Source: Marsupella aquatica
Lineage: Eukaryota > Plantae > Marchantiophyta
NCBI GenBank assembly: GCA_973895155.1
Contig: OZ316895.1
Span: forward strand, 14,636,716-14,700,715
Direction of reading: 5' to 3'
Length of the DNA: 64,000 nucleotides
Numbering within the stretch: the first letter of the stretch is position 1; each line of letters starts with the position of its first letter. The position numbers and the translations under genes are program-made. Of the stretch, positions 10,401 through 64,000 are shown piece by piece. The notes under the pieces were generated by a model. That model saw only the letters and a program-made list of their open reading frames with translations, was not told the origin of the DNA and did no database searches.

Positions 10401-11871
10401 TAGTGTCTGATTTCAAGTGTCTGATTTCAGACTATGGCTTTTCTTTATGATTGCGGTGTTCCATTAATAAGCTACTTAGTTACAGGATACATTTTTTACC
10501 CATAGTGTTGATGATCATGCCCCAGCTTTCACACGCCCTATTGTTTCACACAGCTAATCTGGGTATCCAGTGGATAATCTGGGTATCCAGTCGATAACTT
10601 GACTTAGTAACCATCGGTTTACTTGCTGTGAGTTAGCTACTAAGAGTAGAGATACTTGCTGAGTTAGCTTTAGTAGAGAAAATCGACGCACTCATATTTA
10701 GTACCTTTTTCTATTTTGTAAGGTGTCTAAGAGAACAAATACTAAGCAGGACTGGGTAGATAAGCCAGATTTAAATCTCAGAAATTGACTCATTACTTCA
10801 AACATTCCTACCTTTGTGGTCAACTAAAGAAGCCGAAGATTTTCTTGCGAAACTTGCGAAAAGTCAAAAAGACAACTCAGCAATATCAGATTTTTTGGAA
10901 CTACTTATCTCCCTGTTTATCTGCTTAATTGTTTACTAGAAAATTTGTCTGGCCCAAAACAAAAGACACTCGATAGTTTTAAAACAGAAGTGATCGTGCA
11001 AGTCTCCGGGATTACTTACTAGTACTCTCTGTGCATACTTATATACTAAGTTGCATTGGAAAGAAAGTTTGAATGCAATGAGCTTTAACTATAACAGGCT
11101 GTACGTTTCATTCAGCTACGCAAGGCTCGCATTAGCAATGTCATGATGGCAGTTTCATGAAGACAAGATATTACAAGCAAATCAGCCTGGTTCGATCAAC
11201 TTCATGCTACAAAATGTTATTTATATGAATCGTTTCGAATATACAAAATGACATCCAACGATGACCCCAAAATTTGCGCAGAAATGCACACCAAGCTAGT
11301 GCCCTTCGATCGCGCAGGAGATCGCAATCATTGACCATTAGCGGTACAACCCTTACTGGTAACTATTCTGATTGCATCTTTGTCACTGAACCGAGAAGTA
11401 AAGCTAATACATCCACTAACTAGTACATTAATATGCACAAAATTACTATAATGTTGCCGAAGAAGAAATTAACGGCACAAATTGCTGTCTTGAAACAAAG
11501 ATCATTCTTGAATAATCCGTGATGCATTCTAGGTTACCTTCGGAATGAACCAATGTAATTTGACTGAGACATGTCAAGGCAAAAACAAATCCACCGAGGC
11601 ATAGAACGCGGTTACCCAGAATATCAGGGAAACATTCCTCCTATAGAAAATGCAATGGAGACTGACCAAGAGATCAATCTTCTCTCTATCAAGGCCCTAA
11701 AAGCCCAACCAGGGCGGACTATCAGTGTCATCTGGACTGTAATCGGCTTGATTCTGTCAGTCAGACAAGAAAAAAATTAATGCTATGCCTTCGGGAGATC
11801 AGATTCTCCCTCAGAGTCGTGATGAATGTCTGCTGGGCACTTTCCGTCTCCAGCTTCTCCCTCCTTCGAAT

Positions 11872-12909
11872 TCAGATGCTTGATGCATCCCGGGCGCTTT
11901 TGCCATCATCTGATTCTCCCTTAGACTCGAGGTCCACAACCACTGGATTCTTCCCATCACCAGTTTGTCGCTTAGACTCGACATCGACGCCCACTGGACT
12001 CTTCCCGTCCTCAGCTTGTGTCGTAGACTCGAGGTCAACGACAACTGGACTCTTCCCGTCACCAGCTTTTCCCTTACAGTCAGAATTGAGATCAACGACC
12101 AGTACTGGACTCTTTCCAACATCAGCTTCTCCCTCAAAATCCGGATCGGTGAGAACTGGACTCTTGCCGCCATCATCTCCATCAGAGCTGAGATCGATAA
12201 ACACTGGGTTCTTGATCTCATTATGTCCATCAGAGCCGAAATCAGTGGACACTGGGTTCTTGCCGTCCTCAGCTTCTCCCGGAGAGTAAGAATCTGTAAA
12301 CATAGGGCTGTTGCCGTCATCATCTCCATCATAGTCGAAATCGCGATCGGTAGACACTGGGCCCTTGCGGTCATCAGATTCTCCCCGAGAGTCAGGACCA
12401 GTAAATATGGGGCTGTACATATTGCCGTCATCAGGACCAGTAAACATGGGGCTGTACATGTTGCCGTCATCCGACTCTCCCGGAGAGTTTGAATCAGTAT
12501 GCATTAGCTTGTTTGCTTCATCAGAGTCTTCGTCTGAGTCCAAATCGATAAACACTGGGCTCTTGCGGTCATCATCTCCATCATAGTCGAAATCGGTAGA
12601 TCTTGGGCTCTTGCCGTCATCAGATTCTCCCGGAGAGTCAGGACCAGTAAACATGGGGCTGTGGCCGTCATCAAACTCTCCCGGAAAGTTTGAATTAGTA
12701 TGCATTAGATTGTTTGCTTCATCAAATTCTTCCTCTGAGTCCAAATCGATAAACACTGGGCTCTTCCGGTCATCCTCTCCATCAGAGGAGAGATCGATAA
12801 ACACTGGGCGCTTACTGTCATCATTCCCAACAGAGTCGAGCTTGATAAACCCTGCGCTCTTACCGCCGTCATCAGATTCCCCCTGAGAGGTTGGCGTCCT
12901 CGTCGGCAT
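11872..12909 (-). CDS. Acidic low-complexity repeat protein with ~7 SUMO-interacting-motif-like units (poly-SIM); probable frameshift near the 3' end
   Basis: 345-aa ORF with repeated SPVFIDL(D/S)S[DE]n and SPVVVDLES units; probable 5'UTR intron acceptor near 12938; paralog at 20428-21111. Confidence 0.6.
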   Translation of the reverse strand: MPTRTPTSQGESDDGGKSAGFIKLDSVGNDDSKRPVFIDLSSDGEDDRKSPVFIDLDSEEEFDEANNLMHTNSNFPGEFDDGHSPMFTGPDSPGESDDGKSPRSTDFDYDGDDDRKSPVFIDLDSDEDSDEANKLMHTDSNSPGESDDGNMYSPMFTGPDDGNMYSPIFTGPDSRGESDDRKGPVSTDRDFDYDGDDDGNSPMFTDSYSPGEAEDGKNPVSTDFGSDGHNEIKNPVFIDLSSDGDDGGKSPVLTDPDFEGEADVGKSPVLVVDLNSDCKGKAGDGKSPVVVDLESTTQAEDGKSPVGVDVESKRQTGDGKNPVVVDLESKGESDDGKSARDASSI

Positions 12910-16866: not shown

Positions 16867-17487
16867 CTGGGGGGCCTCACTCTAAAGGGGGTCTCGTATG
16901 GGGTCTCATAACATGCTCGACATTTTTAGCAATTAAACACCCTAAAAAATAAGAAGAAAAAAATTGAACTATTTCTCTGCAACTCTTGTTTGGCCCCAAA
17001 TGAAATACTCCCAAATTTCATTTCTAAAATCATATCGATCCTTCTCTTATAATTCTCAAAATTGGATTTTAGAAACCCTAGCTAATGTTCTTTTACATAA
17101 ATTTAAAAGTATTCTTTTCAACCCAATAAACAAACCATATACTTACTTGCGCATGATCTCGGGGGTTTCACTTCCACAAAAATGGCATATCACGTGCGAC
17201 GAAGGATAGGGTCATTTTATTGGTTTTAAGGGAAGACTTAAGAATTTTTGTAGAAGAACAATAGGGTCTTTTAAATTCAATTTTGAGACTTATAAGAACA
17301 TTAGGGTCTTTTTAATCCAATTTTTAGAATATTCCAAGAATATTCCAACTTTATAGGGGTTAAAAATAATTTTCTTACATTTTAGGGGGTCCGAGGCCTA
17401 AAAACATCGCAGGCGATGGGGAGGTCCCCATATAGTGAGACCCCCGAGCGCATGATGGGTAAAAAGTAAATAAGTGAGGACCCTGAG
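16867..17487. mobile_element. MITE (outer), 8-bp TSD AAGTTATC, containing a nested MITE
   Basis: TIRs ctggggggcctcact / agtgaggaccctgag; aagttatc at 16859-16866 and 17488-17495. Confidence 0.85.
17158..17448. mobile_element. MITE (291 bp), 8-bp TSD CGCATGAT
   Basis: TIRs ctcgggggtttcact / agtgagacccccgag; perfect TSD; near-identical to 18461-18749. Confidence 0.92.
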
Positions 17488-18460: not shown

Positions 18461-18749
18461 CTCGGGGGTTTTACTTCCACAAAAATGGCATATCACATGC
18501 GACGAAGGATAGGGTCATTTTATTGGTTCTAAGGAAAGACTTAAGAATTTTTGTAGAAGAACAATAGGATCTTTTAAATTCAATTTTGAGACTTATAAGA
18601 ACATTAGGGTCTTTTTAATCCAATTTTTAGAATATTCCAATAATATTCCAACTTTATAGGAGTTAAAAAAAATTCTTACATTTTAGGGGGTCCGAAGCCT
18701 AAAAACATCGCAGGCGATGGGGAGGTCCCCATATAGTGAGACCCCCGAG
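18461..18749. mobile_element. MITE (289 bp), 8-bp TSD ACAAGGTA
   Basis: TIRs ctcgggggttttact / agtgagacccccgag; acaaggta at 18453-18460 and 18750-18757. Confidence 0.92.
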
Positions 18750-19751
18750 ACAAGGTACAGATTCACTTGTTTTAATGGCACTCAAATCAGAGAAAAAGTG
18801 TGCACTTTAAAAGGTACAAAAGATCCCTTGCCTTAGTTAATAACAATAAAAACCATAAGCCAAATATAAGTTTGAGGAGTCAGTACTTATAATTGAAGCA
18901 TGGTTGAGGAGTTCACTCTCAAATTACCAATTACCTCTCATTCACTAGAATTGCAAGAAATCCATTAAAGGATTCTTATGCAACTTTGAAAAGGGAAAAT
19001 CCAGGAAAGGTATTATTTATAATGGTAAATTAAAGAATGGTAGGGGGAGTCACAGTTGATATGCATGGATTGCTACTTGATTCTTGTATAGCATTTGGCA
19101 ACTCCCTTTTCTTCTTAGGTGTCACTCTTTTCTTCACACTCAATGTAATTGTTTTTTGTATGTTCCTTCTCTTTGCCAATTTCTTCAATAGATGACCACA
19201 GGAAAAAAAAGGTGCAACATGTTATTATAGTTTTAGATGTTGTCAAATGTGTTTGTCCCTTTATATATGTATCCCAAAACCCTGTCACCCCAGCCAAGAG
19301 TAGTTTGGCCTCCAACCCCGTTATTAACTCATCCAAATATATACTGAATTTTGTCAAGTATACCAAGGGGATGGGTGTGTACACTCTCCTTGCATTGCAT
19401 GCACATGAATGAGTACTACATTGGGGCACCGGTCAATATAAATAGACAATGGTCGGGGAGTGATTGGATAATAAAAGAGTGTATTTGCTAATGTGATGAG
19501 GAATATCAAAAAGGGTATTCTTTACATTTCCTTCATTGTTTTCTGGGTATTATTTTTATTTGTCCTCTAAGCTTTGCTTTGAAAATTTGAGTTATTTCAC
19601 TTGGCATGGAAAATGGTAAATTTTGAAAATGGCACAACCCTTTATTGTAGGAGTTAATGTCCAACAAAATATTGCAAAGTGGCAACCCTTTCATTTCAAT
19701 CTTTTATTATAGGAGCTAATGTCCCACAAAATGTGGCCCAGTAAATAATGG

Positions 19752-20427: not shown

Positions 20428-21111
20428 TCAGTCAGACAAGTAAATAATATGTGGTAGGGGCTTCGGGACCTCAGGTTCTCCATCAGAGTTGACGTACAGA
20501 ATGCCTTCTGAGCCATTATCGTCATCAGATTTTCTCTGAGAGCCGGACTCGCTAGACGTTGGGCTGATGCAGTCTCCAGAATCTCCCTCAGATCGAGAGT
20601 CTGGGCCATTATCGTCATCAGATTTTCTCTGAGAGTCGGACTCGGTAGACGTTGGGCTGATGCAGTCTCCAGATTCTCCCGAACCCACATTACTACTTCT
20701 TGGCGCTTCTGACGGCTCAACAATACAGCCAGCTTTTGTCGCATCAAACTTGAGCTCAATCCATCCTCGTCTTGGTCTCGGTTTATTTCTTCTATACATC
20801 TGTGTCCTACCAAAATATCGACGATATCGACATTCCCTCGATGTTATTGCTTCAAGAAGGACAGAAAACATTTCCGTACATGCCCCACTCTGATGGTTAG
20901 GTTTAGTACTAGTACTCTCAGCGTCACTGACAGCAGCCCCCACCTGATATTCCCCACTCTCGCCCCCACTCTGGTTAGTGCTTCCAGCATCACTGACAGT
21001 ATTCATTGCAACATTCATCACCAGTGATTGAACATGTGCCCCGCTCGGATCGTTAGACCCGAAGGTTTGAGCGTCACTATCAGCAGCCGCCACATGTGTC
21101 CTCTTCGGCAT
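20428..21111 (-). CDS. Paralog of the acidic repeat protein (diverged middle, basic stretch, ISPT(S)xES repeats)
   Basis: 227-aa ORF; start context (MPKRT vs MPTRT), C-terminal region and flanks are homologous to 11872-12909. Confidence 0.5.
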   Translation of the reverse strand: MPKRTHVAAADSDAQTFGSNDPSGAHVQSLVMNVAMNTVSDAGSTNQSGGESGEYQVGAAVSDAESTSTKPNHQSGACTEMFSVLLEAITSRECRYRRYFGRTQMYRRNKPRPRRGWIELKFDATKAGCIVEPSEAPRSSNVGSGESGDCISPTSTESDSQRKSDDDNGPDSRSEGDSGDCISPTSSESGSQRKSDDDNGSEGILYVNSDGEPEVPKPLPHIIYLSD

Positions 21112-24248: not shown

Positions 24249-24322
24249 AATCAAATGTAGAGGCAGGGTACAAAAAGGCCACCAAACAGGAGCCTTTTTG
24301 TACCCTGCCTCTACATTTGATT
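24249..24322. repeat. Perfect 31-bp inverted repeat with 12-nt loop
   Basis: aatcaaatgtagaggcagggtacaaaaaggc / gcctttttgtaccctgcctctacatttgatt. Confidence 0.95.
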
Positions 24323-25592
24323 CATCTTGTTTTTTCGAGGAAAAAATAAAATGTAGAGGCAGGGATGTACAATTTATGTAACGGGTACTCAATGACAGAT
24401 TTGACGGATGGGCCATTTATTGCTTGCACTTATCAAGGAATGCAAAATGGGCTTAGTGCACTTATAGAGACACCTGTACAGTGCAGATCGTAAACCTTAA
24501 GAAACCAAATCGGTTCAGAAAATTCCGCGTGACAACTATTAAGACAGGTTTGGCTCTCCTGTCCCTTGCGGCTTGCGCTGTCCCGTGCGCTGTCCCTTGG
24601 GCTGTCCCTTGCGCTGTCCCTTCGGGGAGTCCTTTATATCCCCTTTCGTGGGGCCAGAAGACAGTCGTACAATTTGTCTTTTCTTCGTCTCCCCAAAATG
24701 GGGAATGAATACGGACAAGTACAGTTTTGGGACAGGAGGGTAATGCCCTGCGTGATCTTCCACGTGGCTAGTAGGTTTCTTCCAGGGCAATTTTTTAGGG
24801 CTTTAAAATTATTTGCGGGGATGGCCAATGTTGAAAACGAAGCCCTGCCAGATAAACCTTATGGTTTCCAGTGCTGCGCCCATGAACTGAGAGCGTTGAC
24901 AGTGTAAAGGGAAGGCATGAAACTCACCCGTGGACTGAGAGAGTTGACAGTGTAAAGGGATGGCATGAAAGTCATGGACACCACCAAAATGACTTCACAT
25001 ATGGGTGGGAACACAAGAGTATTTGTTTGTCTATTAACCACACATTTGTCCGACGAATACATCCAAAGTAGAGTGAATCGAACACTTTAGGAACTGACAA
25101 CCTTTGAGCCGTGCATTCTTTCTGGTTAATAACTTCCTAGTCCATGATCAAATCAAGTGATTGTCGGCTTGTTCAAAATATGATTTGAGGCCGGAAATTA
25201 CTTTGTGGACCACAAGGCAACTAATGGACCCCATTTTACCTGCTAGCCGACATCATAAAAGTCTGTGTTGTGCCACCGGCAAAAAGACCCTTTTTACAAT
25301 GCTCAGTATGACGTAAAACAATTGCAAAATGTAATAGTGTTAGCTGCTTAACCTAAAACTAAGAACTAAACTTTCTCAACCAAGCATGTACACCATCATA
25401 GTCCTGGGCTGGCCTGACCTGGCCGGATTCCAGTTAACTTGCTTCCTCTGTGCCTGCCATGCCTTCCTACATTAAACCTGGAAAGCTCAGCTCATACAGA
25501 AAAATATCAAAAAGTTGAGTTTGGAATGTGGGGTCAGTGCATTGGAAGTGAGCCACTATGTGAGCATGTTTAATTGCAGATGTTAGTAATGG

Positions 25593-25868
25593 CTTGGGGG
25601 TCTCACTATATGAGGGCCTCCCCATCAACTAAATCAAGATTGCAAGAAAAAAAAAATCAACCCCTATAAAGTTGGAATATTCTTGGAATCTTCCAACTTA
25701 TTGATTAAAAATACTCTAATGTAACTTTTATAAGTTTCAACATTTAATTTAAATACCATATTGTTCTTGTGAGAAAATTCTTAAGTTTTCTATTAGAACC
25801 AATAAAACTATCCTAGATTTTGTCGCATGTGATGTGTCATTGTTGTAGATTAAAATGAAACCCCTTAG
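25593..25868. mobile_element. Degenerate MITE, same family, reverse orientation
   Basis: cttgggggtctcactatatg ... tgaaaccccttag; flanks agtaatgg / attaatgg (1 mismatch). Confidence 0.75.
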
Positions 25869-55032: not shown

Positions 55033-55561
55033 GACATGGGAGCAATTGAGTGGCACAAAAGTTGTCAACTTTCAATTGGGCTCGGATTGGTCCAGGAGCT
55101 TCAAGACAAGGAAGCTCCATTCTTCCCGAGGCAACACTAATTGTTGAGCCATTCAGACTATATTACACTGAACAGAAGCCAATTTCCAAAAACATGACTT
55201 GACATCTTGACTACTTTCTCCACAGGGTTGCCGAGTGCAATCTGTGAATGGTTCCTTCTTCTTTTTGGTGTAAAAGCAGCCATCACTTTACACAGTCCAG
55301 GATGGGCAAGGATAACATCTCCATCCATCTGGATTGATGTGGTGGATTTGTAGTCAATATATGAAAAGTGTGATATATTTGTAAATACAACAACCCAATT
55401 GTAATTGGAATATCCTTAGTGACAAAGTAATTAAAAGGTGATTGTACTTATTAATACTTGTCATCATAAGGTGTTGTAGTGGCATTGTCATGCCGAGGGA
55501 CAGTGCCGCTTGTGCACATGCACTTATTAATACTTGTCATCATAAGGTGTTGTAGTGGCAT

Positions 55562-55920
55562 TGTCATGCCGAGGGACAGTGCCGCTTGTGCACATCGGCA
55601 TGTCCCTCGCATGCCTGCTAGGTATGTAGTTAGGGCTAGTGTACTACTTGAGTTAGTGTCATGTTCTTGTAGCAAGTTTGGGCCGTTCTTGAAGCAAAAC
55701 GTGCTTGTTAGTGTGACGCCTTGACTTGATCTACTTAGGGCATGTCTTTCTTTGTCGGTTTTCAGTTCTTCTTGAATCGCTGTTGACAGAGCTCAGACAG
55801 TGCTCGTCGGTTCCGTACACGGGATTCACACAGTGATTCGTTAGATGCTCCCGGCTGATCTTGGCATCCTGCCGGTTTTCGATTCAATTTCAGTACGATT
55901 GTTTCTCTTACGCCTTTTAT
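55562..55920 (+). repeat. Terminal repeat segment A1 (359 bp; starts TGTCATG, ends CGCCTTTTAT)
   Basis: Direct alignment with A2. Confidence 0.92.
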
Positions 55921-55933
55921 TCAAGAAGAACTG
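55919..55933 (+). promoter_or_regulatory. Putative self-priming primer-binding site
   Basis: attcaagaagaactg is the exact reverse complement of cagttcttcttgaat (55763-55777), which overlaps an Inr-like TCAGTT in A1. Confidence 0.75.
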
Positions 55934-57231
55934 TCGAGTTAGCGGTGACGGGAAGAAGATTTCTCGTGGCAGTTTTGACAATTTTTGGTTAAGCCATTGC
56001 AATTTCCTCGATAGACATTGGAACGAGGCTTCAAAACTATGGGTTTAGTGTGGAGTTATGTGTATACTTAAGTGTATACACATAACACTCCCGTCGGGGC
56101 CCAGGTTTTCCTTTTCCGGCCGCAACCTTCTTTGTGACCTACATCGGCGACTTGCTACCGACTGCACAGGCCGCTGCGCCCTCGCTCGCATTTTTAAGAC
56201 CCTTGTTCGTTAGTTTTTATGGGCATTTTCCCGGCCACGGCTGCCGCGCGACCACTTCCCTTCCGACCGCGCGCCCCGTTTTTCTCTTTTTCGCCGTTTC
56301 CGGCCGTAGTCTCCCCTTTGCCTCCCTCCCGATCGCATAAGGCAGGCTGCGCATAGGGCATCATGCCCTCTCGTTTTGACAGCATTTAATTAAGGAGGCA
56401 GGGAGTCGACTAGCCGAGCACAAGCGCGAGGGGGGAGACAGAGCCTAGGCAGGCAGCAGCGCAAGGAGTGGGCACGAGGCCCTATGCTGCATTAAAGGGG
56501 GAAGGGGAGTACATACGACTCCCTTCTCGGGAGTCCTCCTGCAGCACACGAAGCAGCATTAAAGCAGGGGGAGACAGAGCCGAGGTAGTGGGCACGAGGC
56601 CCTATGTGCTACATTAAATGGAGGGGGGGAGTACATATGACTCCTTCCCTCAGGAGTCTCCTGCAGGGCATGGAGCCCATTTTCAGCCTTAAGGAGGGGA
56701 GGGGAAGCGAGGCAGCATTAAAGGAGAGGAGGGGGGAGTTTGTAACCCCTTTTCGGGAGCTCATAAGGAGGGGGCGCGAAGCCCTATGCAGGGCTCGTGC
56801 CATTAAGAGGGGCCCCTGCATCCGCCATTTCTTTCCCTTCGCTGAGTGTCCGAAGTGTATACACTTAATTCGGGCCCTTTTCTTTTCGTTTTCGGCCGTT
56901 CTCGCTCATTCACCACGTGCGGGATGCCAGCATAGGGCATTGGGGCCGGCCAGTCCTTCCATTTTTGGGTCCACATAGGGGCCTGAGGTATATACTTCAG
57001 GGGGCCCATTTTCCTCATATTCCTTTGCTGTCGCCGACGTCAGGTCGTCTATATACAGCCCGGTATATACACAACGGACGGTCAATTCGGCATATACATA
57101 GGCAAACGCGAAGGGGGCTAAATTTGAGGTTTTAAGGGTCCTTTTTCCCCGACGGTTTTTTGACGGTGACGGTTTTTCCTGGTGTTTACACATTTTGCAC
57201 GTTTTCAGTATATCCGGTATTGCAACACAGT

Positions 57232-58269
57232 ATGTCAGCAGACGAGCCAGGAGGTAGCAACACATCACCGCCGACATCCAGGTACCGTTTACGGAGTGAT
57301 CCACGACTATTGGTGCCAATTTCATTGGAGTCTCAGCAATTTCGACGACGTCCGTAGACAGCAGCAGCACCCACACCACGCAATCCTTCTGCTCAATTTG
57401 GCGGTCGCTTCACCACTACTCCAAAGCCTGCTATCACTTCATTGCCATTTACCCCTTCTGCATCCGTGGTTGTTCCTGCTTCACCGACATACAGCATGGA
57501 CGCCAGCCACTCATCTGGCCGCATTGAACGCTTCAGTGGGCGGCCAGACATTGTTTCTTTGCGTGAGTTCAAATCCACTTTCTACACTGTCATTTATGAA
57601 TTGGAGTTGAAGTATGGCAGCAATTTCACAAATGCCTTTGCATTTAAACAGCTAGCCAGGTATGTGCACCACGAGGTTTTAGATGTGTATGAGCAGCACT
57701 CTCAACGGCTGCTTGCCGTCACACAATTGCCTAACCCTGCCTATGCCATTGCAATTGCGGCTGCCTCACAACTGGCATTACAGAATGCCATTGCAGCCCA
57801 TGCTGCTGCTCCTGCCACTTCCCTTTCTACTCCAGTTCCCACCATTGCACCAGTTACTCCCACTATCTTGGCACACGCTACATCAGGCATTTCTCCCACC
57901 ATTGATTCCCCTGCCTTTGCTGATCCAGTGGCTGAGTCTTTCCAGGTTCTTGAATTGGAATTCCCAATCAAGAGTGCTGACAAAATCATGCAGTTGGCCA
58001 CCTTTGTGAGGCAGCGCGATGAAACATTGAAGATGATGTATCGCCGGCTTCTCCAGCTGAAGGAGGACACCTAGAGCATCATTGACTTGGAAGCTGCTCA
58101 TTGCTATCTTCGCTCATTGGAGGGCACACTAGCTCTCCATTCGCAAGTGTTGCAGCAAGTATTCTCAGAGTTTGGAGATAGCTACACCCTGCTCAATGTC
58201 TATGACACTGCTGAGAAACTTGAGTTGGCCCATGCACATTATGAGGCCAGTATTGCGCGTCCACCGCGA
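57232..58269 (+). pseudogene. gag: gag-like ORF of copy 1, with in-frame TAG at 57355 and 58072, truncated by insertion
   Basis: ORF pieces 57160-57357, 57442-58074 and 58087-58284 share one frame; IERFSG..LREF.. and RQRDETLKMMYRRL resemble retrotransposon capsid motifs. Confidence 0.7.
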
Positions 58270-58445
58270 TGTCGTGACATATAGTATCGTAGCCATAGTG
58301 TATCGAAAACATACAAGTCACCGGCAAGGCATATGTGCAAGCTGCTAGCAACCAACATGCATAGAAAAAGTCCAATCACATTCACAAGTGCCAAGAAAAA
58401 GCAAATGAAGTGGTATGTACGTAGTGGAGGTGTAAACCTCTGTAT
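58270..58445 (-). repeat. Terminal repeat segment B2 (176 bp; ends ..CACGACA)
   Basis: Direct repeat of 58807-58982 with 3 transitions. Confidence 0.95.
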
Positions 58446-58804
58446 ATAAAAGGCGTAAGAGAAACAATTGTACTGAAATCGAATCAAAAACCGGCGGGAT
58501 GCCAGGATCGGCCAGGAGCATCTAACGAATCACTGTGTGAATCCCGTGTACGGAACCGACGAACACTGTCTGAGCTCTATCAATAGCGATTCAAGAAGAA
58601 CTGAAAAACCCACAAACAAAGACATGCCCTAAGTAAACAAAGTCCTGGCGTCACACTAACAAGCGCATTTGCTTCAAGAACGCCTGGCATTTGCTATAAG
58701 AACATGTCACTAACTCAAGTCGTACACTAGCCCTAACTACATACTTAGCGGGCATGCGAGGGACATGCCGATGTGCATAAGAGGCACTGTCCCTCGGCAT
58801 GACA
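58446..58804 (-). repeat. Terminal repeat segment A2 (359 bp; starts TGTCATG on the minus strand)
   Basis: Inverted copy of 55562-55920. Confidence 0.92.
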
Positions 58805-58806
58805 AC

Positions 58807-58982
58807 TGTCGTGATATATAGTATCGTAGCCATAGTGTATCGAAAACATACAAGTCACCGGCAAGGCATATGTGCAAGCTGCTAGCAACCAACATGCATA
58901 GAAAAAGTCCAATCACATTCACAAGTGCCAAGAAAAAGCAAGTGAAGTGGTATGTACATAGTGGAGGTGTAAACCTCTGTAT
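58807..58982 (-). repeat. Terminal repeat segment B1 (176 bp), immediately after the PPT
   Basis: Direct repeat of 58270-58445. Confidence 0.95.
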
Positions 58983-59000
58983 CCCCCCCAGACCCTCGCC
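58983..59000 (-). promoter_or_regulatory. Polypurine-tract-like sequence (..GGCGAGGGTCTGGGGGGG)
   Basis: G-rich tract between the pol stop (59034) and B1. Confidence 0.75.
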
Positions 59001-59048
59001 CAGACCACAGCCAAAAGGAGGGCTGAAGAAAATTCAGGTAGCACGTGG

Positions 59049-59195
59049 AGCACATGAAGGGCAAAACCATAACCCTTCTGGCACCTGGGTAAGTTCAAGC
59101 CGAAGGCAGAAAAGATGGTACCCTCCATTGCAATTGTCACACAGCAGCATCTGGTCAGCATCATCAATTCGCAAACACACTTTGCAAGGGTAGTC
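59049..59195 (-). other. PHD finger at the integrase C-terminus
   Basis: DYPCKVCLRIDDADQMLLCDNCNGGYHLFCLRLELTQVPEGLWFCPSC (C4HC3 plus conserved W). Confidence 0.93.
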
Positions 59196-62100
59196 CACAC
59201 GTGGAATCCAGGTAGAAGTCACAATGGTGGGATCCAGGTTAGGCAGATGACAAGGGGCGCAATTCTTGGCATTGTCAGCAATTGTGCGCCCATCTGCCCC
59301 TTGTAACTCTAGCACTCCAGACGGTCGAATAGCTTTAACCCTGAGAATTGTACGACTGGTAGAGGTGTCTAGGGTGTCGTTAGCTTGCCGCTGCAAGTAC
59401 ACAAAATCTCCCACATCAAACTTCCTGACCTTGGGCTGAAAAGTGCCCCCTCGTGTGTGTGCATAACGCAGTGTGTCCCTATGCTGTGCAATGGCCAAAT
59501 TCTCCATGGCCATGGGCATAACCCTCCTGAATGGGGCAGCCCTCTCAGAGATCACATCAGACCAAGTCACAGCTGAATCCAAGTCTACCACCTGAACCAT
59601 GTGAGCAGCAATAGCAGAAGGTGGAACTGGGTGACGACCAAACAACAAGAAGTAGGGAGAAAAGTTAGACAATGATGCATGTCTAGACATCCTATACCCC
59701 ATGGCAATGTAGGGTAAGGCCAGGTCCCAATCCTCCTTGTTTTTGGTGAGGCAAATCTTCCGGAGACCCTTCTTGCATGTCTGAACCATGCGCTCTGCCA
59801 AGCCATCTGCCTGTGGGTGATCTCGTGACGTTCGGCGATGATCAATGAGGGCTTGATCAAGCAGCTCCTGGAACTCTCCTCTGAACTTTGATCCCTGGTC
59901 AGTGAGACATTCTGCACAAGCTCCAAAGCGGCTGTGAACTTGTTGCAGGAATGCCTGGCTCGTGCTACGAGAGGTCTTATCCGGCAATGCCACAAGTTCT
60001 ATCCACTTGGAGAAATGCTCTATCATGATCATGATGTAGAGATTATCCTGAGACGTGAGGGGTAATTCTCTAGCCAAATCACATGACCAGCGATAAAACA
60101 TGCCCTGAATAGGGAGTGGATGAAGTGTGGGTTGCCGAGATGTGAAAGAAGTCCTCACCCTATCACATTGTTCACACCGAGCAATAACATCTTGAACCTG
60201 GCCATGCATGCCTCTCCAATGATAATGAGGGACCAAGAGGCTGTAAGTCCTCTTAACGCCAAAATGACCAAGCTCATAATGTACCTTACGGATAAGGCCA
60301 ACCCTCTCATGAATGGGTGGAACCACCACTTCCCTGTCTGGCAAGCAGCGCATGAGATGATCTCCCTTCCACAAGTAACGCTTGGACCTTTGCTGAATTC
60401 GGTCTCTCTGGGTTGCAGTAACATGTATGGGGTACTCCCCATGCTGCAAAAATCTCATAGTGTCGCTGTCCTCCCATATGTCCACCACAGGTTGGTCAAC
60501 GATATAGCATGGCAGCAAAGCAAGATAGGTAAATGCATGAAATGTAGGCAGGATGGAAACCTGGTCAAAATCCTGCCGTGCATCTGAGGGATCATCAGAG
60601 GCAATCAAAGGGCTGCGGGACATAGTGTCAACATTTTGATGTGTCACACCAGGCCTATGAATTACCTCAAAATCATACTCCTAGAGTATGAGTGCCCAAC
60701 GAGCAAGCTTGCTAGTAAGCTTGTCGTTGGTCATCAACCACTTCAAGGGCTGGTGGTCGGTGTAGAGAACAAACCTGGTCCCATAGAGGTAGGGCCTGTA
60801 ATGTATTACAGCCCACACAACAGCAAGGCATTCACCCTCATAAGAAGAATAATGACTCTCTGTCTGATTGTTGCTCCTGGATGCATAGGCAATGACGTAC
60901 TCTTTACCTTCCTCATCATGCTGGCCTAGAATGGCACCAATCCCAAGGGCACTCCAATCTGTGTGTAGCACAAAGACCTTGCTGAAATCAGGTCTTCTCA
61001 GCACCGGGTATTCTGAGAACTTCTCCTTCAAAGTGGCAAATGCTGCCTTAGCATCTGTACTCCATGTCCAAGTCACATTATTTTTCAACAAAGAGTGCAA
61101 TGGATGTGCAATGGTACTGAAATCTTTGATGTAGATCCGGTATTAATTGCACAGCCCAATAAAACTCCTCAAAGTGTGAACATCGGTAGGAGTGGGCATT
61201 TCCAAGATGGATACCACCTTGGCCCAGTGAGCCATGGTTCCATTTGGAAGAATGCGATGCCCAAGATATACTACTGATCTGACAGCAAATTCACACTTCT
61301 TGGGGTGTATCTTTAGGTTCACCTTCTTAAGCCTCATGAATAGCTCCTCAAGGTCAAGTAGATGTTGGTCAAATCCTTTGCTGTGGACCAACACATCATC
61401 AATGTAGCATTTCAGAAACTCAGCACCTTGAAGAACCTGGTCCATGACTCTTTGAAAGAATATGGGCGCATTCTTCAAGCCAAATGGCATCACCAACCAC
61501 TCCCATAGTTGGTTACTACCATGGAAAGCTATTTTCTTGCGGTCCTTTGCAAACAGCAAAATCTGGTTAAAGCCTTGCCTTAGATCCACAAGAGTGAAGA
61601 TGTCTGAGTCTCCAATGCTGTCAAATAGCTCCTCTGGCCGTGGCATGGGGTACCTGTCCTGGGGTGTGACCAGGTTCAGTGGCCTGTAGTCCCCACACAT
61701 GCGCTTCTCTGTCCACAATCCACTGGAATCCTTCTTTGCTGGCATCACTGTAGCTGCTGCAAAATCTGATGTAGATGGCTGAATAAGACTAGCTTCATAG
61801 AGCTCTTGGCATCTCTCATCCACCAACTGCCACTCATGCTTACTCAAACGGTGTCTCCGCCTGAAGATAGGTGTTTCATCAGCCAAATCAATGGAGAACT
61901 GCATAGTCTTGCACTTACCCAAGTCCTTCATAGAGAAAGCAAACACATTCTCATGCTTGAGGAGCAAATTCAGCAGCTGGTCCTTCTGTCTTTTACTCAG
62001 GTGGTTGCCCATGATGAATGTGTAGTTGGCAACACTAGGAATAGGACCTGATGTACTCGTGCTTGAAGAGCCAGAAGTGCCAGCCTCTCCACTGTCCAAG

Positions 62101-62364
62101 CTGCTAGCATGCTGCTGATAAGATGATGAGGCCTCTCCAAGGCCTGCTATATCTGTTGCTCTGGTCTGATCCACACCATGAAACTCAGAAATAATGTCAG
62201 CCACATTACAAGGGACCTCCTCCCCCCCAACACTTGGACTGAAGTGGTGAGTGTTGGACAGAGGTAAATGCACCTGGTCTGGATGCCATGTAGCAGCACC
62301 ATGGAGTGGTAGGGCTAGAACTCCTGATGCTGGATGAATGTACATCTGAAAAAGGATGCAAGTG

Positions 62365-63305
62365 ACCAGAAGCCAAGTGAGAGCATTAAGATCCATTACC
62401 CTATCAAGTAAAGCATTCCTGGCCAGCCTGGTGATTTTGGTGTGACTGTAGTACCGGGTTGGAAGCCCATAGCCCGTTCTCTCTCCTCAGGACTAGGTTC
62501 ATCCCATGTACCGGTGGAATGTCGATAAACCAGGCCAGGACCATCACCCTGAAAAGCATGTGCACCTAGAAAGGACACAAATGTAGGCCAAGCAACACGG
62601 GGCTGTCCAATGGTATTAGCTGGATACCAAGGTGCTGGCTCTTGCCGTGTAACCGGTTGGCAAGAACTGTCAGGATCCAAAATCTGGTCCACTATGAGGT
62701 TAGTGACCCTGGATGTGTGGTGAAGAGCTAACTCCAACAAGGAAGGTGGTGCAAGGTTAGTCCAAAAGTTACGAAGACGATGTGCATAAGAACCATAGTG
62801 CACTGCATCAATGAGAAGGGGTGGTCCCAAGTAGTGCTGGACCACACTGAAATCCTCTTTGACCTGTGGACGCTGGTCAAACTGAGATGGAGTATTCTCA
62901 ATGATATAACCAACAGCAAGATAAAGGGATTGAGCCCAGATGAGAATCAAAACCAATGCTGTGAAAAGGCCAGAACGAGAATCATGCAGTCCAGCACCGT
63001 GACCAGCAGCTGAAAACCCTTGGCATTCCCAACCAGCAATGATCAAATCAAGGGAGCCAAGAAGGGTTAAGTGCCGGTGCTGGACAAGCTGGATATCTGG
63101 AGGAAAGAAAGAAAATGCAGACTTCCATGCACTGTGTGGAAACTGCTGAGGAAATCGCTCTGAAAATTCCAGTAGACGGGATTCAGCCACTTGCCTTGCA
63201 CCTGGATCAATATCCACATAGATGTACTGCTTCACCACCATGCCAGACTATAGGAGAGCTTCCAGGCCTGTAGAAATACCACCAAAAAGCTCAAGCAATG
63301 TAAGG
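62365..63305 (-). other. C5 cytosine DNA methyltransferase domain (DNMT3/DRM-like) within pol
   Basis: Motif I LLELFGGISTG, II YVDID, IV DLIIAGWECQGFS, VI IIENT, VIII HRLRNFWTNL, IX EERERAMGF, X RNALLDRVMDLNALTWLL (after the frameshift). Confidence 0.9.
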
Positions 63306-64000
63306 CCATCCGGAGCAGGAGTCCATGTAACTGGTACGCTCAAGATTGGGGCTATTGGCTGTCCATTGTGCTGCCCAAGGTCTTCAAACTTGCGCAATGC
63401 AGCCACCAAAGGTCCATGGGCTGCTTGGAGTCGTTGTACCACCTCTGGTTGATGATCCACATTGCTGGAAAGTGCTGCTATATGTGCAGCGGCATGTGCA
63501 ACAGCCACCTCATCATCATCCTCCTCAATCCAATCCTGCAATGGGTGATTGACATAGGTAGCTGTGTGCACTACTTTCAACACACAGTGGTGAGCCATAG
63601 GTGTATGGGCACCATGCAAATCAAGTGGAATGTAGCCCAAGTGTGAGCCATCCGTATGCCAATCAACTCTGTAGTATGCATGCTCATGCCAGTTGTCAAT
63701 GGTAAAACCTGGTGGGAACAAAGCCTCCTGGCCAATGAGCACATCATACGTAGTGGCATTGGTAACCAAACATTTGACTGGGAAATGCAGTTCCTGATCT
63801 ATACCTCCATTAAAAGTGAGAGTGAGTAAAGTAGAACTCTCACCCAACACGTCCTCCACGGTGCCACTAGCAGTCCGAATGTGCCACCTGGATTGCTGTA
63901 AATGATGAGTCAGCAGTCCCATCTTCTTGGCAAACTGAATGCCCAAGATTACTGGTTGAGCGCCTGTGTCTAGCATGACCACCTGAGGAGTGTGACCCTC

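Follow-up and report, generated by a model that had tools for sequence, protein, structure and literature searches.

A Ty3/gypsy variant with an attachment site encoded inside its repeats and its probable integration through an internal junction

The prevailing view holds that the integration of LTR retroelements proceeds through processed linear cDNA ends and that two-LTR circles are mostly dead ends. The locus described here raises the question of whether an integrase may instead cut a junction that lies inside the LTR. In the window, i.e., the whole stretch of 64,000 nucleotides that was analyzed, a reading made from the sequence alone had noticed a 7-bp imperfect inverted repeat with a 2-bp spacer within the LTR, had recognized in its halves the true ends of the element, and had proposed, by analogy with IS3 and IS30, that the integrase cleaves this internal junction. 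As argued below, the genomic record fits cleavage at an internal junction encoded by the element. The features on which the argument draws are given here by position, with A and B designating the two parts of the repeat.

55446..55595, plus strand: perfect 76-bp tandem duplication of left flank plus the first 34 bp of B1.
55562..55920, plus strand: B1 of the second, related copy, with the true left end TGTCATG and no A upstream.
55763..55777, plus strand: predicted RNA 5' end and self-primer, CAGTTCTTCTTGAAT; the same motif lies in B2 at 58589-58603 on the minus strand.
55921..55933, plus strand: primer-binding site complementary to the self-primer, without a TGG start; the pairing spans 55919-55933.
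57230..58269, plus strand: gag of the second copy, with 64-75% nucleotide identity to the sequence that precedes pol in relatives; it is broken by a stop, and the minus-strand element interrupts it at 58269/58270.
58270..58445, minus strand: A2, the terminal A copy and true right end of the minus-strand element.
58445..58446, minus strand: B2|A2 joint, precise in the window copy; putative join of two natural cDNA ends.
58446..58804, minus strand: B2, 359 bp, starting with TGTCATG; presumably the remainder of U3 together with R-U5.
58798..58813, minus strand: internal att junction, CACGACA-GT-TGTCATG, which recurs in relatives.
58805..58806, minus strand: 2-bp spacer, GT in the window copy and GC in most of the family depth.
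58807..58982, minus strand: A1, 176 bp, the PPT-proximal part of U3, ending in ...CACGACA; three differences from A2.
58983..58989, minus strand: G-run polypurine tract (PPT; seven G) directly before A1, the same in relatives.
59034..60680, minus strand: integrase (HHCC zinc domain, D-D35E core) with a C-terminal PHD finger, open over 548 codons.
60681..61142, minus strand: RNase H segment of pol, separated from its neighbors by stops.
61143..62486, minus strand: reverse transcriptase (RT) segment of pol.
62396..63247, minus strand: C5 cytosine methyltransferase segment of pol (PF00145, E 5e-6), in a frame different from that of RT.
63248..64000, minus strand: aspartic protease segment; the element runs on past the window edge.

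The window contains two copies nested in opposite orientations, the gag of one being interrupted by the other. Further copies belonging to the window's family were seen through Logan contigs from four runs of two studies: the contigs of all four runs read on through gag at 58269/58270, and those of other family copies also break at 58270, where 16 contigs of run X1 carry mixed flanks. Autointegration of one molecule as the source of the nesting was rejected, since B1 and B2 are only 90.6% alike, versus 98.3% for A1 and A2. The left end of the minus-strand element lies beyond the window edge, and its broken pol has the order protease, cytosine methyltransferase, RT, RNase H, integrase, and PHD finger. 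The junction halves do correspond to true ends, as had been claimed, with TGTCATG at 55562 and CACGACA ending at 58270, but these ends belong to the two different copies and not to a single element. The observation that TG/CA is lacking at the end adjacent to the PPT (58982, ATACA...) and at the end adjacent to the primer site (55920, ...TTTAT) was correct.

Some other features of these copies and of the window can be recorded here. The 76-bp tandem duplication creates a second TGTCATG at 55486. The leader of the plus-strand copy (56330-56840) carries repeated purine-rich units (56467-56544 versus 56587-56666); its depth in the contigs is far below that of gag, and most copies differ in sequence upstream of 57228. 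Related copies or solo B-A units, inverted inside or beside another copy, occur in the window and in relative loci L027, L042, L075, and L080, which could reflect a preference for self or for heterochromatin. Elsewhere in the window, degenerate 48-51-bp repeats, common to the regions at 11788-12870 and 20460-20690, lie in open frames of 190-360 codons; a dispersed repeat of ~290 bp is present in three copies, one of them inverted (17158-17449, 18461-18752, and 25590-25849); and a perfect 31-bp inverted repeat with a 12-bp loop is found at 24249-24322.

Judged from its sequence, the element is a Ty3/gypsy variant (PR-DNMT-RT-RH-IN-PHD) with the layout B-internal-PPT-A-NN-B-A. The pol order PR-RT-RNase H-integrase was found both in the window and in intact relatives such as P0125. 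The integrase is of the retroviral type, with HHCC and an intact D-D35E triad; its best solved relative is that of Ty3 (E 9e-21), followed by the foamy virus integrase, and its scores with the IS481 and IS3 profiles, 64 and 22 bits, lie far below the respective cut-offs of 224 and 160. No Pfam match to a tyrosine recombinase was found in seven frames of the window or in the long relatives listed. The cytosine methyltransferase domain (PF00145) is placed between PR and RT, and the same Pfam set occurs within single proteins of relatives. The closest named proteins are those of the liverwort Calypogeia fissa (up to 88%), followed by those of Klebsormidium and green algae, the proteins of K. nitens being 46-70% identical to the window integrase. 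Two complete direct LTRs bounded by PPT and primer site were not found, the layout being B-internal-A-NN-B-A, and since there is no canonical LTR pair, the element has to be regarded as a variant and not as a canonical member of Ty3/gypsy. The DIRS-like split repeat layout and the A-ORFs-B-A-B topology are both found in window-type elements. As for the methyltransferase, many of the relatives listed have a precomputed PF00145 match and many do not, and the pol bearing it (62396-63247) extends the KnitGypsy-Dnmt3 type to a probable bryophyte.

On the minus strand, positions 58813-58798 read CACGACA-GT-TGTCATG, and the two arms agree at 6 of 7 positions, confirming the imperfect inverted repeat with a 2-bp spacer inside the LTR. 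In the family form with a GC spacer, the junction becomes the palindrome GACAGCTGTC. By itself, the 16-mer is weak against chance (13 of 100 shuffles gave two matches when two mismatches were allowed), and its significance comes from its placement between two repeats and from its recurrence in relatives, not from the letters alone. At position 58805, 97, 92, 96, and 92% of the summed contig depth, which is not a copy count, is G on the plus strand, corresponding to GC on the element strand (four runs, with 20, 10, 13, and 18 contigs). The GT spacer of the window is a private change, and the usual spacer of its family is GC. No indel is listed at the spacer of the window's family in the contig pileup of the four runs (13 substitution rows lie outside the listing), and contigs of other family copies give way to mixed flanking sequence at 58804 (58805 in one run) and at 58807.

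Relatives were taken as the best 80 of 589 metagenome loci (integrase 58-80% identical). With the window's A and B as blastn queries, no match was found in the repeats of these 80 relatives, and what window and relatives have in common in register is limited to 8-9 bases at the junction halves. Self-comparison gave the order B-gag-pol-A-B-A in eight relative loci with both ends. With one natural copy as the probe, A adjoins B in 32 loci, five of which duplicate an insertion, leaving 27 distinct; the spacer is 2 bp long in 32 of 32 (27 of 27 distinct), with zero indels. A junction variable or absent in other copies, which would have spoken against the proposed cutting, is therefore not what the junction-bearing relatives have.

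The spacer types of the 27 distinct relatives are AC (9), GC (6), AT (5), GT (5), AA (1), and TC (1, in L021), with a purine followed by a pyrimidine in 25. Both spacer bases lie in a CHG context, in which the coding region of the relatives shows ~30% transition decay. The types are not clustered on the tree (15 changes versus 15.8 when shuffled), and one insertion found in two samples has GC in one and AC in the other (L024/L026). Since the spacer is GC or one of its transition decay products and not random flank, it is encoded and not captured, and the att site is apparently a fixed, element-encoded palindrome that reverse transcription copies. The spacer begins with A in 15 of the 27 relatives, a share above the 31% G-to-A decay at CAG in the coding region; this excess implies that some AC masters may have existed, and an invariant GC spacer in the relatives is not proven.

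Distant relatives (integrase 40-50%) are carried by seven eukaryote-like contigs misbinned in bacterial genomes (L081-L087). In these, GACAGCTGTC occurs once each in L081/L082, L083, and L084, which represent three families, ~60-240 bp after a G-run, and it was present in 0-4 of 300 resamples. L082, from a distant family, has the arrangement A-GC-B-A with identical A copies; no junction was found in the 1.9 kb of L087, and L085 and L086 end before the junction region. In genome_contigs, 25 loci were matched, and 18 weak bacterial DDE matches were left out; scans of viral_contigs gave no relative. In L081 and L084, A-GC-B runs straight into the internal region (L081, 9.2 kb long, has one A-GC-B only and a terminal repeat of 127 bp), and their reading as free circles was rejected, since the same path can arise from a repeat graph.

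In inserted copies, the left terminus is the TG half of the junction and the right terminus its CA half. The 4-bp target duplications around B...A were assessed in 18 full-length copies with readable ends, a set that leaves out L054, L058, L060, L069, and the solo L038: eight are perfect, seven have one mismatch, one has two mismatches, and two copies (L009 and L015) have no duplication. At least three of the four bases match in 15 of the 18, and 56 of 72 bases matched overall, compared with 20 on average and at most 40 in 20,000 shuffles; registers of 3, 5, and 6 bp do not fit the same 18 copies. TG...CA termini accompanied by a short target duplication are thus found in the relatives. Since the duplications flank the whole B...A unit, the idea of a solo LTR beside a deleted LTR with its own target duplication is refuted. 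Together with the 27 of 27 junctions, these whole-unit duplications support the proposal of the sequence-only reading that the integrase cleaves the internal att junction rather than linear cDNA ends.

As a separate observation, the terminal A of L030, L036, L050, L078, L038, L052, L058, L060, and L017 stops 15 bp short, at a subterminal CACGACA repeat. These short right ends, of which those of L036 and L038 have perfect duplications, could reflect an alternative cut site or slippage. Such ends were not used as evidence of alternative cutting, because internal A copies also lose a unit (L024 and L078).

The sequence directly after B contains no TGG tRNA site and is complementary to a stretch inside B, over 15 nt in the window, as many as 15 nt of another sequence in relatives, and 13 nt in L081. 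Self-primer sequences differ among the three families yet stay complementary to the primer site, and decayed old copies show shorter complementarity. In the relatives, the self-primer starts ~30 bp after TATAAA, 165-200 bp inside B. None of the integrated ends corresponds to a natural cDNA terminus (ATACA... and ...TTAT or ...CAAT). B is not preceded by a purine tract, and the sequence beyond A2 is variable flank; it follows that no primer sets natural ends at TG...CA and that these ends must come from the cutting of an internal junction. We consider it very probable that the integrase cuts the internal palindromic att site and not the natural cDNA ends.

The B|A joint behaves differently from the att junction. 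Among 25 distinct joints, 12 are exact and 13 are imprecise, the latter comprising losses of 2 bp in four cases (one with an extra insertion), of 1, 4, ~7, and ~217 bp in one case each, additions of T, T, TC, and A, and one replacement of T by G; a further joint, in L075, is exact. The additions match the first bases of the primer site (T, TC) or the G of the PPT. The 12 joint indels in 25 exceed a background of at most ~0.07 per 10 bp (p 5e-8) and the 0 of 27 at the att junction (p 3e-5). Imprecise joints occur in younger copies (median terminal branch 0.056 versus 0.097, p 0.03) and are not clustered on the tree, which argues against later decay or inheritance. The joint looks newly made in each cycle, like a fresh end-join, and the common 2-bp loss could partly be ATAT slippage. 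The window's own joint is precise, and in its family no joint indel reached 8% of depth; 2 of the 11 listed single-contig deletions start at the joint (58445 and 58446), removing 134 and 209 bp of B, and L046 has lost ~217 bp of B up to the joint. Within one copy, B1 and B2 are best matches in 6 of 8 cases and second-best in 2 of 8. For A1, the closest match is its own A2 in 5 of 22 loci (mean identity, 0.901 with its own and 0.876 with others), a weak signal, and A1 copies do not group apart from A2 copies. In run X3, the start of A (position 58445) adjoins mixed sequence in five contigs (agreement 0.51), which may represent filler from aberrant joining.

A route consistent with these data would begin with an RNA that starts inside B1 and primes itself in the manner of Tf1 just after B, as the observed complementarity suggests. 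Standard LTR reverse transcription from the self-primer and the PPT would, to judge from their positions, give A-GC-B-internal-A-GC-B, with A-GC-B at both cDNA ends and no att dinucleotides at the termini. These natural ends would be end-joined afresh in each cycle, which may account for the observed variability of the B|A joint. The integrase would nick after CA on both strands of CA-GC-TG, leaving 2-nt 5' overhangs as in normal 3' processing, and insertion with a 4-bp stagger, visible in the target duplications, would yield B-internal-A-GC-B-A. The junction used would be that of the primer-side LTR and not that of the PPT-side LTR, as indicated by the absence of the mirror product that a cut at the latter would give, B-A-GC-B-internal-A: A was found upstream at 0 of 21 5' ends, and L040, L027, and the window copy are also without it. 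By this absence, one junction is favored over the other, and random cleavage of two-LTR circles is contradicted. The primer-side LTR might be chosen because it is double-stranded first and captures the integrase. That a closed two-LTR circle precedes the cutting appears to us evenly poised.

The simpler B-internal-A form was found at 32 loci, versus 27 two-repeat loci, and is scattered on the tree (19 changes versus 19.9 when shuffled), from which 21 of the 80 loci are omitted (12 repeated insertions, 7 loci whose 3' repeat could not be read, and the rearranged or interrupted L042 and L048). It is somewhat older (0.103 versus 0.084, p 0.04), yet it makes up 10 of the 23 youngest copies, and it may derive from later A-by-A recombination, from one-LTR circles, or from a double cut. 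No third repeat unit (A-B-A-B-A) was found in the 80 loci.

Several explanations compete for the origin of the B|A joint, and four of them would all need internal cleavage. Joining of the ends before insertion has, in our estimate, about an even chance. A possible, if unlikely, alternative is that the cut is made in linear cDNA, where the integrase would insert both halves of the primer-side junction and host end-joining of the resulting break would make the joint. The same product, the 4-bp duplication, and an imprecise joint are predicted by this account, and the deletions of B at the joint (134 and 209 bp in the window's family, ~217 bp in L046) resemble resection, which may, however, accompany circle formation as well; moreover, each insertion would amount to a double-strand break, yet 12 of 25 joints are exact. 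Rather improbable is an end-to-end jump of RT from the end of B to the start of A, producing longer-than-unit cDNA (A-B-internal-A-B-A-B...) in which cutting of junctions 1 and 3 would give B-internal-A-B-A and cutting of junctions 1 and 2 would give B-internal-A. While such a jump would account directly for the left end being always the primer-side B (0 of 21 in mirror form) and for the occurrence of both forms in the same lineages (19 changes versus 19.9), and the primer-site-like additions suit template jumping, it would require the coordinated cutting of distant junctions, and no A-B-A-B-A copy is present in the 80 loci. Joining before insertion remains the account that we follow.

It is scarcely credible that an ordinary B-A LTR (TG...CA) acquired this layout by accident, through a solo LTR beside a deleted LTR or an assembly artifact. 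B-A does resemble an LTR of the canonical kind, and it is also found as a solo unit (in L038, flanked by a CAAT duplication, and in L080), but the layout recurs in 27 independent insertions and in the distant family of L082, the duplications flank the whole element, and the PPT lies before A and the primer site after B, whereas a B-A LTR would require the opposite arrangement. A copy-out of the IS3/IS30 type, in which the integrase would join the ends at the DNA level by attacking the flank and the spacer would be donor flank, appears equally remote. The abutted inverted ends, the short spacer, and the weak matches to the IS481 and IS3 profiles recall such systems, and the spacer of IS30 circle junctions is 2 bp long. 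However, the spacer consists of GC or its transition decay products and not of random flank, with GC and AC in the same insertion (L024/L026), the profile scores fall below the family cut-offs, and RT, RNase H, PPT, and self-primer are present. What stands of the IS3/IS30 analogy is the geometry of the abutted ends; it does not extend to the spacer, which is element-encoded, or to the integrase, which is nearest to those of Ty3 and foamy virus. Quite improbable, finally, is a mechanism resembling that of Ngaro and PAT, with an RNA spanning B1 to A2, an inherited joint, and an internal junction that templates the circle junction cut by the integrase. The repeat topology is that of the split direct repeats of tyrosine-recombinase elements (PMC5890265, legends of Fig. 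1e and 4c), and the joint types show a slight, nonsignificant clustering (73 of 500 shuffles were as low), but close relatives carry different joints, and a self-primer 165-200 bp inside B, in relatives ~30 bp past a TATA-like box, together with an intact PPT points to standard LTR reverse transcription.

At an even balance of probability, we would place these elements in a clade of DDE-integrase retrotransposons, extending from green algae to bryophytes, with att sites in mid-LTR and obligatory integration through a two-LTR circle cut at the palindromic GACAGCTGTC, i.e., with the Panganiban-Temin route as the normal life cycle. If this is true, the split direct repeats of Ngaro-type elements may be explicable along the same lines. 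Through this family, the split-repeat layout known from tyrosine-recombinase elements is connected with DDE retroelements, and a naturally open integrase with a 16-bp substrate offers a direct test of an old, dropped model. In practical terms, finders of LTR pairs will miss or misdate such elements, and an integrase by which circles are cut at a short palindrome and inserted would be of interest for DNA delivery.

The layout has already been glimpsed in print, in a 2018 figure legend; the mechanism appears to be undescribed. For KnitGypsy-Dnmt3 of Klebsormidium nitens (de Mendoza et al. 2018), the legend gives the repeat structure of DIRS elements with Gypsy domains (PMC5890265); compared by that legend, it shares with the window's family a Gypsy pol with a cytosine methyltransferase and DIRS-like split repeats. 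The part available of the text on this element describes no junction, target duplications, self-priming, or integration route (PMC5890265). The Chlamydomonas v6 paper mentions LTR subparts in PHD-bearing Gypsy (PMC9940879), and the part available of a 2026 preprint on adenine methyltransferases does not describe the layout. No published description of the junction or of the integration route was found in a search whose scope did not extend to subscription journals, Repbase, and theses.

Ngaro and PAT share the A-ORFs-B-A-B topology, in which the end junction is repeated inside the element (the layout given in the SymbioDIRS legend, PMC5890265), but they use a tyrosine recombinase, whereas in the window's family a DDE integrase is accompanied by a PPT, a self-primer, and 4-bp duplications. 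Elements of the IS3, IS30, IS21, and IS256 types are alike in that a DDE enzyme cuts abutted inverted ends over a short spacer of fixed length and inserts both; they differ in having no RNA step and a host-derived spacer. In IS3-type circles, the spacer is host flank taken up in a figure-eight reaction, and the copy-out spacer varies from 1-2 bp in IS2 to 6-8 bp in ISCth4, according to PMC3299598 and PMC7780238. Canonical Ty3/gypsy elements, including Tf1, have in common with the window's family the order PR-RT-RH-IN, D-D35E, PPT, TG...CA ends, and 4-bp duplication, and Tf1 likewise has an RNA 5' end complementary to the primer site and no tRNA site (PMC7175516); however, canonical members have a full LTR pair at their ends, whereas here the att sites are internal to the reverse-transcribed repeat.

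The best precedent for the cut itself is found not in IS3 or IS30 but in the prototype foamy virus integrase, which in vitro cleaves after CA on both strands of the palindrome CA-AT-TG, leaving a 2-nt 5' overhang (PMC1180852); an equivalent cleavage of the LTR-LTR palindrome is reported for HIV-1 (PMC1905944). In foamy virus, the junction arises from joined cDNA ends and the provirus is normal, whereas in the window's family the LTR itself carries the encoded att junction, the ends that become joined are no att sites, and the integrated element is permuted. Integration through a two-LTR junction was proposed in 1984 by Panganiban and Temin and was dropped for retroviruses in favor of linear ends (PMC11054761); that model and the window's family have in common the cutting of an internal LTR-LTR junction, and the window's family appears to use one naturally.
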